DNA of 64,000 nt from Myxococcota bacterium (GCA_041288095.1 JBGGMJ010000182.1:861-64860), one strand, 5' to 3'; counted from the first letter of the stretch, positions 59,785-63,729 are shown. The notes: generated from the sequence alone by a model not told the origin. Translations and numbers: made by a program.

Positions 59785-59788
59785 GCGA

Positions 59789-59839
59789 CTTCTCTGCTCC
59801 CGCAGAGAAGAAGTGCTGCTTCGGTCACCTTCGGGTGAC
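59789..59839 (+). terminator. two consecutive hairpins after rplL (possible terminator)
   Basis: CTTCTCTGC-TCCC-GCAGAGAAG (59789-59810) and GTCACC-TTCG-GGTGAC (59824-59839). There is no clear U-tract. Confidence 0.4.
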
Positions 59840-59956
59840 TCGCATTCCGATGACATACGGGCGGCGCGCGGCGACCCCGCGCCCGTCCCGTGTGCTCGGA
59901 GGCACGTCGGCCTTACATCTTCGTCGCGTGCCGACAATGGCCGGCTATGGCCGTGT

Positions 59957-60574
59957 CTAGCGACCGAGCGACCGCAGATACGCGTTCAGGTCGGCGACCC
60001 CACCTGACTCGATGCTGCCGCTGCGGCCCGCCGAGTAGTCGAAACGGACGCCTTGCCCGCCGACCTGCGGCTCGAGCATGACGTGGTCGAACTCAGCCGC
60101 GCCGACCGGGCCGCGGAAAGGCCGGCCGTCGGTGCGACTCAGCATGATGCGGTTGTCGGCCTGAACTTCGAGCCGGAAGCCGCCCGGGACGTCGACCGGC
60201 ACGCGCTCGCGATTGACCAAGATATGGTTGTTGCCGTCGGTCGCGCCAACGCGAACCCGGCGAACCTGCTGGTCGGCAGGCTGTCCTTCGTTGAAGCGGC
60301 GGTAAACCTCGCTGTAAACGCGGTCGCGTAGGAGGGTGCGCTGGCCCGGCGGCCGGGTCATGGCGTCCCGGTCGAAGGCTGCTTCGAGAGCTCCGGCGGA
60401 AGCGCGGGTCAGGGTGCCGAGGAACCGATCTGCTTCAGGGTTCGGCATGCGTCGGAAGGCGTCGACTTGCTGTTGGTTGATCTGAACGCCATCGCGCTCG
60501 AAATCCGTATCGAGATCGACACCCTGATTGGTCGGCGTTGCCCGCGCCCCTGGAAAACCGATCTTATCCGCCAT
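59957..60574 (-). CDS. hypothetical protein (205 aa; 217 aa if started at 60610)
   Basis: Last gene of a three-gene minus-strand unit. The ATG at 60574 is preceded by AGGTAGGG. Ordinary residue diversity; no motif recognised. Confidence 0.45.
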   Translation of the reverse strand: MADKIGFPGARATPTNQGVDLDTDFERDGVQINQQQVDAFRRMPNPEADRFLGTLTRASAGALEAAFDRDAMTRPPGQRTLLRDRVYSEVYRRFNEGQPADQQVRRVRVGATDGNNHILVNRERVPVDVPGGFRLEVQADNRIMLSRTDGRPFRGPVGAAEFDHVMLEPQVGGQGVRFDYSAGRSGSIESGGVADLNAYLRSLGR

Positions 60575-60635
60575 TGCCCTACCTGCCTGTGTGTCCAAGC
60601 AATGTAACACGCGGGCAGGGCCGGTTGGCTACCGC

Positions 60636-62408
60636 TCAGGCTTTGGGGTTGGTGTTGGTCGTCAACAGCCCCTGAATGAAGGGGTAGTGATAGATCTGCA
60701 TATCGCGCGGCTTGGAGATGGTCTTCAGGCGCTCCTCGACCATCTTCACCAGCTCGTCGCGCTGCTGCTTGGTGCAGCAGTCGAAGTGCGGTCCGAGCTT
60801 GATGAACTGGAGCTCGAAGGCCTCCTGCAGCGGCGAGAACGAGAAGAACATGCGACGGCCGTACTCGGACGCGCCGGCTAGGAACTCGGCGGCTTTCTCG
60901 AGGTCGCCGTCCTTGATCGCTGCTTCGGCGTCGACCACGACCTCGTGCAGGAAGCGCTGATGCCAGATGAAGGCATAACGTCCGCCGAGGATGCGGCCGT
61001 CGACGGTCCAATGGCGCAGCAGGTTGTCGAGGACCTCGCGTTCGACCGACGGGCCCATGGTGACCTTCTCGAGTCCGCCATAGCCGAAGGCGCGCGCGAT
61101 ATTGCCGAAGCGATCCTGGAAGAACGAGCCGGCGGTGCCCATGGCGATGCCGACGAGATTGAACACCACCGCGTCGAGGCCGATCATCCACTGCGGGCCG
61201 ACGGCCTTTTCGAGGTAGAGCTTGCCGATACCCGAGGCGGCGCCGACGCCCGCGAAAGCGCCGAACGAGATGCCGGTGATCTTGTTCTCGATGCGGCGGC
61301 TGACGTCGGCGTTGAGTTGATCCTGGACGACGCGCCACAGCTCTTCCATCGTCAACGGCTTGCCGCCGTTCTCTTTCATCTTCTCGTGCACGATGGCGAG
61401 CACGTGTTTGGTGACGCGGCGTAGCTGGCGTAGGAGCTTGAAGCGCTGGAAGGGGTTCTTGCCCTTCATGAGCTTCTCGAAGTGCTCCTCGAGCGCCTTC
61501 TTGATCTCCTCGTCGGAGCCCTCGTCATTGGCGGCTTGCACGAGCCCGGCGCGACCGTCGAGCGAGATGGTGGCCATCTCACCGGGGGCCTGCAGCATCA
61601 GCGGGTGGTGCAGCTGCTTTTGCGGACTGCGCGTCGTCAGGCCGGTGACGATGGCCTCGACATACTCCGACAGACCTTTGCGCTTGCCGTTCGAGAGGCG
61701 CTCTGCTTCGTCGCGTACCGCTTTGCGGAAGCTCGCGAGCTCGGCCTCGGGCAGCTTGTGAAAGTACGGGTAGAGCTCCATGTAGATGCGCCCGTACGTG
61801 CGCAAGCTCAGCGGTGACTGCTCAATCCAGATGTGATGGTCGTGATAGAGGCAGCCCGCGAGGCGGCGAGCCGCGCCGTTGAGATCTCCAGCCGCGATGG
61901 AAGAGCGCACGCCGGCACACGTCACCTGGAGCATGCCGCGGTAGAGCTCGAGGTTGTCCGACATGCCGCTGACGCGGCCGTTGAGCTTGTTGCGCTGGTT
62001 GCTGACCTCGAACATCGAGGCCAAGGCTTCCGGGTAGATGACCTTCGCCTGGTTCGCGCCCGCGACCGCGGAATTCGCCGGATCGCCGGGACCCGTCGCC
62101 GCGCGGAAGACCCACGAGCGCAGCGGGTTGGTCATGTTTTCTTGGAAGCGTGCGCCAGCGGCTTGGGCCGTACCGGTCGCGGTGTTGATGACGGGCTCGA
62201 AGCCACGCGCCGCGGTCTTCGGGCCCTGGTTCAAGAGCCAGCTCGCGAACGCACCGGCGCCGGTCGCCGCGAAGTAAATGCCCGCGGAGATCCAGTTCGC
62301 TTTGCGCGCTGCCTCCTTCTTCTTCTCCTCCTCCGTTGGCGGAGGTTTCGGAGGGTCGGGTGGGGCAGGCGGCTGGGCGACGAGGCGCCCGTTGCCGCTA
62401 ACCTGCAT
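60636..62408 (-). CDS. orphan protein with two copies of a Gly-rich hydrophobic + helical module (590 aa)
   Basis: It contains an internal duplication related to the upstream 373-aa ORF. All three copies end in a PxF-K...L..F/L.K.V.E motif (LYPYFHKLPEAELASFRKAVRDEAERL; LGPHFDCCTKQQRDELVKMVEERL). Confidence 0.55.
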   Translation of the reverse strand: MQVSGNGRLVAQPPAPPDPPKPPPTEEEKKKEAARKANWISAGIYFAATGAGAFASWLLNQGPKTAARGFEPVINTATGTAQAAGARFQENMTNPLRSWVFRAATGPGDPANSAVAGANQAKVIYPEALASMFEVSNQRNKLNGRVSGMSDNLELYRGMLQVTCAGVRSSIAAGDLNGAARRLAGCLYHDHHIWIEQSPLSLRTYGRIYMELYPYFHKLPEAELASFRKAVRDEAERLSNGKRKGLSEYVEAIVTGLTTRSPQKQLHHPLMLQAPGEMATISLDGRAGLVQAANDEGSDEEIKKALEEHFEKLMKGKNPFQRFKLLRQLRRVTKHVLAIVHEKMKENGGKPLTMEELWRVVQDQLNADVSRRIENKITGISFGAFAGVGAASGIGKLYLEKAVGPQWMIGLDAVVFNLVGIAMGTAGSFFQDRFGNIARAFGYGGLEKVTMGPSVEREVLDNLLRHWTVDGRILGGRYAFIWHQRFLHEVVVDAEAAIKDGDLEKAAEFLAGASEYGRRMFFSFSPLQEAFELQFIKLGPHFDCCTKQQRDELVKMVEERLKTISKPRDMQIYHYPFIQGLLTTNTNPKA

Positions 62409-63519
62409 GGCTCACCTTCTCGACCACGAGGACCGCCGGCTTCTCGGCCGGTTGTTCGACGTCCGAGTTAGCGGACGGCTTCTTCGGGTTCAAGATGCGG
62501 TCGAGGAACGGGTCGTAGTAGTCTTTGATAGCGGCCGCGGTGTCGGGGCGGCCTTCGCTCGCCACGTTTTTGCGCTCGCGCTGCACCTCTTCGACGACGG
62601 CCTTGCGGAAGGCCGCGAGGTCCTCGGGGCTCGTGCCCTTGAAGTGAGGCGACACGACCAGGGAGAGGTTCGCGAACAGCTCGAGGTTGTGCGGGTCGAA
62701 GTTGAACCAGTAGAGCTCGGTGTTGATGAGCCGCCGAGCCATGAACATCGCGGCGTAGTCGATCGCTTCTTTCTTGGCTTCTGGGCTCTGCGCTTTTCGC
62801 GCTTCGGCGAGCTGCTCACCGACTTCGCGGAAGGTAGGCGCGAGGTGAATCTCGAAGATGGTGAGCGCGAAGCGTCCGCCATTGAAGCGGCCGTCGGCGG
62901 TGTTCTCCACCATGTTGGCGAAGATCATTTCGTCTTTGACCGCGTTGACGTCCTGCGACTGAACCGGCGCGCCCTTGAAGCCGACGCGATTGATCCAGGC
63001 GCGGATCGGCGAGCTGATCTTGTCGTTGAACAAGCCGGTGCAGGCGCCGACGAGCGCTCCGCCGACGGTGTAGAACACCGGGTTCCAAGCGGCTTGGATG
63101 GCGGTCGCGACGCCTTCGGTAAATGCCGCCTTGAGAGCGAAGTTGATGCCGTAGTTGATGCCGGCGAAGCCCAAGAGGGCGCCAAAGAAGATGCCGCCCG
63201 AGACCCACCAGGCGCGCCGGTCGGTCTTCTTCGACTCCAGCTTGAACTTGGCTTTGTCGACCGCGCGCTCGGCGACTCGGAGGTCGAGGCTGTCGCCGTG
63301 CATGGCCACGAGGCGGCGCATTTCGGGCTCGACCTCGCGGGTGAGCCTCTGCACGTCCGCGTTGGCGAGCAGGCCCGCGTTGGGCAGTTGACCGCGCCGC
63401 TTGAGCACGTCCCGCGTGAACATCGCGACGTCGTCGGTGAAGGCACCTTTGTCAAAAGAGACAAAACCCGACGTCAAACCCGGGAGCGCCGGGCCCTTCA
63501 GATCAACTGATTGTGGCAT
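62398..63519 (-). CDS. orphan protein with one copy of the same module (373 aa)
   Basis: WWVSGGIFFGALLGFAGINYG...DGRFNGGRFALTIF...VVSPHFKGTSPEDLAAFRKAVVEEVQRE. It overlaps the downstream paralogue by 11 nt. Confidence 0.55.
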   Translation of the reverse strand: MPQSVDLKGPALPGLTSGFVSFDKGAFTDDVAMFTRDVLKRRGQLPNAGLLANADVQRLTREVEPEMRRLVAMHGDSLDLRVAERAVDKAKFKLESKKTDRRAWWVSGGIFFGALLGFAGINYGINFALKAAFTEGVATAIQAAWNPVFYTVGGALVGACTGLFNDKISSPIRAWINRVGFKGAPVQSQDVNAVKDEMIFANMVENTADGRFNGGRFALTIFEIHLAPTFREVGEQLAEARKAQSPEAKKEAIDYAAMFMARRLINTELYWFNFDPHNLELFANLSLVVSPHFKGTSPEDLAAFRKAVVEEVQRERKNVASEGRPDTAAAIKDYYDPFLDRILNPKKPSANSDVEQPAEKPAVLVVEKVSHAG

Positions 63520-63729
63520 GGGTCTAGGGTTTCGGTGCCGCGCGCAAAAGATTTCGTGAAAACGTGCGTGTCACCGACCCGATAACCACCGCCGCACAGC
63601 TGTATTCGCGCATTAGGTGGGGAAATGGACGGAGTTAAGCGGAGTTCGGGCGGTCCAGCGCCACAGCGGCACTGCCAGATCGCGCCTCGGGCAGAACCCC
63701 TGGGGCAGGGCGCGGTACCGCTCGACCGC

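Follow-up and report, generated by a model that had tools for sequence, protein, structure and literature searches.

A bacterial genome is expected to carry rpoB shortly after rplL and rplA directly after rplK, in the canonical rplKAJL-rpoBC cluster. The question raised by the locus described here, a 64,000-nt stretch of an uncultured Myxococcota bacterium (GCA_041288095.1, hereafter G000; JBGGMJ010000182.1, hereafter contig C182, positions 861–64860), is what has become of that cluster, because neither expectation holds: rplL is not followed by rpoB, and rplK is not followed by rplA. We refer to the whole 64,000-nt stretch as the window; the contig ends 1,035 nt beyond it. Both splits, rplK|rplA and rplL|rpoB, are derived characters of the genus to which G000 belongs and not the state of its order, and the explanation that we consider very probable as a whole is that the cluster suffered both breaks in the genus's common ancestor.

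The rplL gene (59374–59784, plus strand) encodes a 136-aa L7/L12 protein from the ATG at 59374, as identified by Pfam Ribosomal_L12 and L12_N, TIGR00855, and tblastn. A preliminary description of this DNA had stated that rpoB does not come next and that three minus-strand genes converge on rplL instead, and the list of open reading frames (ORFs) confirms both points: orfC, orfB, and orfA run from 63519 down to 59957, and a BAAT-like hydrolase gene lies beyond them. The plus-strand reading frame that had been placed there from 63730 is, as claimed, not RpoB (an alpha/beta hydrolase with a weak Pfam BAAT_C match, E = 8e-6, in a scan of its orthologue in the congener G002), but the conservation of its N-terminus points to 63625 as the start. 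Its 5′ part (63625–64000, plus strand; ∼535 aa in full) leaves both the window and the contig and resumes on contig C207. The sole rpoB of G000 was located on contig C106 (G000:C106:4045-8244), with rpoC next. Ahead of rpoB, the first 4 kb of C106 encode an orphan and an LCM-type methyltransferase, both on the minus strand, but no rplL, and G000 has one copy each of rplL and rpoB. The contig order C182-C207-C44-C106 was obtained by searching the proteins encoded between rplL and rpoB in two congeners against G000. At the first join, the hydrolase ORF cut at the end of C182 resumes at the start of C207; at the second, a PKD-domain gene is interrupted by a ∼73-nt gap; and at the third, C44 and C106 share an exact terminal overlap of 141 nt. 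Summed over the chain, the rplL stop and the rpoB start lie ∼25.7 kb (about 25.65 kb) apart, with both genes on the same strand, and the earlier figure of at least 4.2 kb was too low.

Comparison with relatives, which the preliminary description had proposed, shows that the break is shared by the congeners and that other families of the order keep the compact cluster. In two congeners, rplL and rpoB lie on one contig and one strand, 24.8 kb apart in G001 and 27.7 kb apart in G002. The DNA 3′ of rplL aligns to G002 over 5.2 kb at 82% identity, and the complete rplL-orfA-orfB-orfC junction stands on G002's own contig; G001 and G003 align to G000 downstream of rplL only from orfB onwards, and in both of them rplL is followed by orfB-orfC. 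The junctions and the bulk of the intervening block are common to all four genomes (G000–G003) and missing from 12 genomes of sister families. In each of those 12 genomes, which represent eight further families of the order, secE-nusG-rplK-rplA-rplJ-rplL-rpoB is compact, with an rplL-rpoB gap of ∼170–790 nt. The rplK-rplA gap is likewise 65–130 nt in other families of the order, as compared to 7.5 kb in G000 and 5–5.6 kb in G001 and G002. Because the 12 genomes have the compact cluster, we regard both breaks as derived in the genus, and what had been presented as a local novelty of one genome is instead a lineage trait at genus level, present in four congeners. In the genus, secE-nusG-rplK, rplA-rplJ-rplL, and rpoB-rpoC are each still contiguous, and the order and strand of the genes flanking the breaks are kept; the locus has the properties of a clade-inherited multigene insertion in the sense of PMC8046335.

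The other break, which the preliminary description had correctly counted as a second disruption of the cluster, lies upstream in the window. There, tuf (47676–48878) is followed by secE, nusG, and rplK (50127–50570, plus strand, the gene for L11), which were identified from the ORF list and Pfam scans, with tblastn in addition for rplK, the last gene ahead of the split. A 7.5-kb insert (50571–58046) then precedes rplA (58047–58754, plus strand; Pfam Ribosomal_L1, E = 9e-70) and rplJ (58786–59310, plus strand; Pfam Ribosomal_L10, E = 3e-24). The insert encodes a 308-aa protein, two tandem orphan paralogues, a TSP3-repeat protein, an ECF sigma factor, and an anti-sigma-like protein, and its content varies between congeners. 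G001 shares the genes for the TSP3 protein and the ECF sigma/anti-sigma proteins at 75% nucleotide identity, and the tandem orphan paralogues (51622–54671) have no DNA match there; in G002, other genes, encoding 660 and 505 aa, occupy the place of the orphan paralogues.

Breaks of the rplL|rpoB junction recur in the phylum. We surveyed the positions of rplL and rpoB in 115 genomes, each at least 90% complete, from 31 families, and found the two genes adjacent in 88 (median gap 212 nt, range 82–738 nt). They lie apart on the same contig in seven genomes (families f1, f16, f12 with a 7-kb insertion, and f23 with 186 kb) and on different contigs in 20, in many of which the flanks are long enough to establish a split (f16, f23, f25, and f12). 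The junction has thus been independently broken in at least five of the 31 families. In f23, rplL and rpoB were apart or on separate contigs in all sampled genomes, and the same was true of nearly all genomes of f16, a family of small genomes (0.5–3.4 Mb); the breaks in these two families are older and family-wide and affect the same junction. With at least five families of the phylum split, and with the cases described in PMC8046335 and PMC3207917, the rarity implied by the preliminary description was overstated, and the present case is one more instance of a documented kind of rearrangement that is recurrent in this phylum.

The block between rplL and rpoB comprises ∼25 kb and some 17 genes on both strands, leaving the strand and order of rplL and rpoB unchanged. 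From rplL onwards, the genes are orfA, orfB, and orfC and then, by Pfam assignment, the BAAT_C-like hydrolase gene, argG, and genes for a PKD/Big_5 protein, a PKD plus SASA esterase protein, an FGE-sulfatase-like protein, a DUF1552 protein, a DUF1592/1588/1587/1595/1585 protein, an M14 carboxypeptidase, three small secreted proteins, the LCM methyltransferase, and an orphan. There is one PKD/Big_5 protein of ∼1,080 aa in G000 and two in G002, where they are tandem paralogues of 1082 and 1083 aa (L004/L005); the single G000 gene contains the contig break, and it is probably this repeat that caused the C207/C44 assembly gap, which makes the copy number in G000 uncertain. The argG gene (G000:C207:1076-2401) is the genome's only copy. 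Its identity is 96–97% within the genus and 72–78% to metagenome-assembled genomes (MAGs) of Polyangiales and Myxococcales, but only 30–33% to argG of other families of its own order, and argG type seems to have been exchanged in one lineage or the other. We also considered whether the block moves as a unit with argG and rejected this: at 80 argG loci of other Myxococcota, rplL, rpoB, and orfA-C were beside argG in none, and the DUF1552/DUF1592 pair was beside it in one (L092), the sole locus with other block genes.

The genes that face rplL are orfA (59957–60574, 205 aa, soluble), orfB (60636–62408, 590 aa, all-helical), and orfC (62398–63519, 373 aa, all-helical), all on the minus strand; the orfA reading frame extends over 59957–60610, with its probable start at 60574. 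The orfC and orfB genes share 11 nt, and orfA follows orfB after a gap of 25 nt. Because Ka/Ks against the congeners is 0.09–0.14 over the three genes (0.10 for orfA and 0.09–0.11 for orfB), they are real genes under purifying selection. They had been called an orphan three-gene operon, a label that fits in part. None of the three proteins matches a Pfam or NCBIfam family, and a Foldseek search of the PDB gave no fold match for the orfC model (best E = 0.55), but the orfB and orfC products have paralogues and, in a profile search, 25 relatives among 1.84 billion representative proteins. The conserved unit, moreover, is not three genes but the orfC-orfB pair, which all four congeners retain, accompanied by a third slot of variable content. 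That slot holds orfA only in G000 and G002, and the protein had two matches among 5.8 billion proteins; in G001 it holds a hicA/hicB pair between rplL and orfB (L002, G001:C13, ∼14280–14911; HicA_toxin PF07927, E = 2.9e-17; HicB PF15919, E = 3.7e-31), which is not in the window, and in G003 just ∼310 nt.

Self and paralogue BLAST comparisons and alignment show that orfB encodes two copies of a module of which orfC encodes one. Three further pairs of orfC-like and orfB-like genes occur in the genome (contigs C16, C212, and C22), in unrelated housekeeping neighbourhoods, and the genomic contexts of distant family members contained nothing informative on function. The AlphaFold2 model of the orfC protein (pLDDT 73.6) is all-helical, a long hydrophobic hairpin rich in Gly and Ala leading into a helical bundle modelled with confidence; that of the orfB protein is poor overall (pLDDT 57) with two confident helical bundles. 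The orfC protein (C-terminus at 62398–62424) and P0015, P0018, and P0019 carry a conserved C-terminal V(A/S)HAG tail, preceded by a variable linker. The tail is present in a subset of the orfC-type proteins, other paralogues being without it, and it could be a sorting or processing signal. We take orfB and orfC to belong to a very rare, all-helical, and probably membrane-associated family with four paralogous pairs in this genome; our best guess, from the hydrophobic hairpins alone, is that they would form a membrane-associated structural or pore-like pair. Their position beside rplL is probably incidental.

What happens to transcription at the rplL end of the break is suggested by the 172-nt convergent spacer between rplL and orfA (59785–59956). 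Its predicted minimum free energy is −94.5 kcal/mol (z = −5.3 against 200 shuffles, none of which folded as well), and it folds into about five stable hairpins rather than the two of the preliminary description, which had rightly remarked on the missing U-tract. The hairpin nearest rplL (59789–59810, plus strand, a 9-bp stem beginning 5 nt past the stop codon) was identified from an alignment of the four congeners and their folds. All four retain it, through compensatory changes and irrespective of the gene that follows: in G002, a T-to-C change is paired with an A-to-G change, and G003 has the same hairpin with a different sequence. Strong hairpins 3′ of rplL are also found in several relatives with an intact cluster. 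A consensus terminator scan of 59785–59956 found nothing, and the spacer falls outside the classical definition of an intrinsic terminator, the stems being stable but the U-tract missing. Hairpins without a U-tract have been proposed as terminators in high-GC bacteria, although this is debated. An Rfam search of the window and the rpoB locus at gathering thresholds returned tRNAs only and no leader or attenuator family. The possibility that the motifs after rplL belong to a dispersed repeat resembling repetitive extragenic palindromes was rejected, as they are found nowhere else in the genome or only as often as expected by chance. Given the gene orientation, transcription of rplJL would either stop here or run antisense into orfA. 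The convergent orfC-orfB(-orfA) unit and rplJL could affect each other only by way of read-through antisense RNA, of the kind reported for rplJL and Rv0653c in Mycobacterium tuberculosis. The spacer is probably the end of both the rplJL and the orfCBA transcripts, and the rplJ-rplL unit would then end in a conserved cluster of stem-loops directly after rplL. Because hairpins are kept both in the congeners and in relatives with an intact cluster, the rplL-proximal element may be a retained attenuator that now acts as a full stop.

At the other end of the break, rpoBC would need a promoter of its own because its upstream neighbours point away from rpoB. Conservation among the four species begins abruptly ∼480 nt before the rpoB ATG, a region that is ∼90% conserved, with a T-rich tract followed by CTTGCAT-N16-TATCTT (C106:3545-3573), and a second conserved block lies 150–200 nt before the ATG. 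Within G000:C106:3545-4044 lies a strongly conserved block, TTTCTGCTTGCG..CCTTGCCAT..GGTCACGCGTAGTAGGG, and a segment of ∼70 nt in the rpoB upstream region is present in G000 and G001 and missing from G002 and G003. We propose that rpoBC is transcribed from its own promoter, probably inside this ∼480-nt genus-conserved region, which may also constitute a leader RNA for rpoBC; both conserved blocks match the Escherichia coli consensus weakly and are promoter candidates only. The 105 nt between the divergent orfC and hydrolase genes (63520–63624) presumably hold promoters for both, judging from their orientation; a consensus promoter scan of the rplL-to-hydrolase stretch (59300–64000) called no sites. 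Beyond rpoC on C106, rpsL-rpsG-fusA are absent (G000:C106:12465-22441), so the link between rpoBC and the str genes is also missing; instead, rpoC is followed by an opposite-strand PIN-domain-like gene and by two orphan ORFs of very large size, 983 and 1416 aa.

Could the separation be an artefact, with rplL and rpoB truly adjacent and the orphan genes joined by a chimeric contig or by binning? G000 is a fragmented MAG of 212 contigs, 90% complete, with rpoB on another contig than rplL. However, the junction from rplL to the orphan genes is internal to C182, other genes fill the 4 kb ahead of rpoB on C106, and both rplL and rpoB are single-copy. Because the junction recurs in the independent assemblies of G001, G002, and G003, and the contigs of G001 and G002 span the whole distance from rplL to rpoB, misassembly, which the preliminary description had named as a possible objection, does not apply, and we consider an artefact extremely improbable. 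We give similarly little credence to the view that the split is ancestral to the order or class, the other objection then raised, with the compact cluster of the other families re-formed secondarily. Such a view might appeal to families f16, f23, f25, and f12, in which rplL and rpoB are also apart, but the distance and orientation differ between the split families. Against it stand the compact arrangement in 12 of 12 genomes of eight other families of the order and in 88 of the 115 genomes of the phylum, and a few independent breaks are a far more parsimonious account than the repeated re-forming of an identical order. It is also quite unlikely that the block is a single horizontally acquired island or mobile element, inserted once into the rplL-rpoB spacer. 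The lineage-restricted orphans at the block ends, the hicAB toxin-antitoxin pair there in G001, the differences in content between congeners, and the argG type unlike that of sister families would all fit such an event. Yet the block shows none of the marks of a genomic island: a Pfam scan of the block proteins, all but a few small ORFs, found no integrase, recombinase, or transposase, no direct repeats of at least 12 nt flank it, and no tRNA lies near rplL or the block borders. Its composition is typical of the genome (66.3% GC versus 66.1%; 42% of random 25.7-kb chunks are equally far or farther from the genome's tetranucleotide profile). It carries the sole argG, and its genes are not neighbours elsewhere, as judged from the 80 argG loci. 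Most likely, the block is a native-looking mosaic that accreted in the lineage piecemeal rather than arriving as one mobile element.

A different kind of alternative accepts the break and holds that the convergent placement is functional, antisense RNA from rplJL or from the orphan genes coupling expression to growth rate. Both G000 and G002 keep the convergent layout with its 172-nt spacer, orfB adjoins the rplL side in all four congeners, and there is an analogue in Mycobacterium tuberculosis, in which the rplJL 3′ untranslated region (UTR) is antisense over Rv0653c in exponential growth (PMC3207917). We nevertheless think this unlikely, as the gene facing rplL varies (orfA, hicAB, or none), the three other orfC-orfB pairs stand in unrelated neighbourhoods, and the very stable hairpins favour insulation over read-through. 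The fullest version, in which the spacer is a dedicated bidirectional terminator or insulator made from the old attenuator and orfC-orfB a new membrane-active family tied to growth rate via rplJL antisense RNA, strikes us as very unlikely; if true, it would mean that the break made a new regulatory link, beyond loosening an old one.

Several points weigh against the explanation that we prefer, a cluster broken twice in the ancestor of the genus and left with separately transcribed parts. Two of the three contig joins in the fragmented G000 assembly rest on congener synteny and not on sequence overlap. The 3′ flank of rplL and the 5′ flank of rpoB had no significant similarity to the rplL-rpoB spacers of the 12 relatives; the ancestral breakpoint cannot be mapped because the spacers of other families are too diverged. 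The argG type unlike that of sister families hints at some horizontal input, and the piecemeal build-up is read from absent island signatures, which old islands also lose. A consensus promoter scan of the rpoB upstream region called no sites, and the candidate promoter there matches the E. coli consensus at 3/6 and 4/6 positions; what we say on promoters, terminator, and antisense transcription is inferred.

With its three independent assemblies, the locus is a well-documented addition to the known breaks of one of the most conserved bacterial gene clusters, and comes from a phylum where rplL|rpoB breaks had not been tabulated before. That such breaks recur tempers the notion of a “universally conserved” locus and implies that rpoBC is readily able to use its own promoter. 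For annotation, rplL-rpoB adjacency is unsuitable as an assembly or completeness check in these lineages.

Parts of this arrangement have counterparts in known systems. In E. coli, a stem-loop directly 3′ of rplL limits transcription into the genes that follow. The Myxococcota locus resembles that attenuator in having hairpins directly after rplL, as do relatives with an intact cluster, but here nothing downstream needs read-through, and the element, with no U-tract, would be a full stop; homology to the ancestral attenuator could not be shown because the spacers are too diverged. A close likeness is to Rv0651-Rv0652/Rv0653c of M. tuberculosis, in which a convergent unrelated gene also follows rplL and rpoB comes many genes later by locus-tag numbering, about 14 genes downstream. 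There, rplL (Rv0652) faces the convergent Rv0653c, over which the 3′ end of rplJL runs antisense, and rpoB (Rv0667) is among the genes listed with long 5′ UTRs (PMC3207917). The two cases differ in phylum and in their intervening genes, which are unrelated, the neighbour of rplL being a TetR regulator gene there and genes of a rare all-helical family here; moreover, transcription was measured in M. tuberculosis and is only inferred for the Myxococcota locus. Genes also separate rplKA from rplJL in Bradyrhizobium diazoefficiens and Actinomyces israelii (bioRxiv 10.1101/2025.04.14.645983), but that break is at rplA|rplJ, whereas the Myxococcota genus is broken at rplK|rplA and rplL|rpoB. Insertions inside the rpoBC operon have been described as clade-inherited, with linkage then loosening further (PMC8046335), and the present case is likewise comparable to the chromosomal genes inserted in or between operons that were described in 2019 (PMC6735719), such as nrdHEF between rplL and rsmC in Lactobacillaceae. 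Those insertions are clade-inherited, carry no sign of distant horizontal gene transfer, and were followed by a loosening of linkage; they were found in Gammaproteobacteria and Bacilli and mostly involve few genes, as compared to the ∼25 kb and ∼17 genes that part rplL from rpoB here, together with a second break at rplK|rplA.

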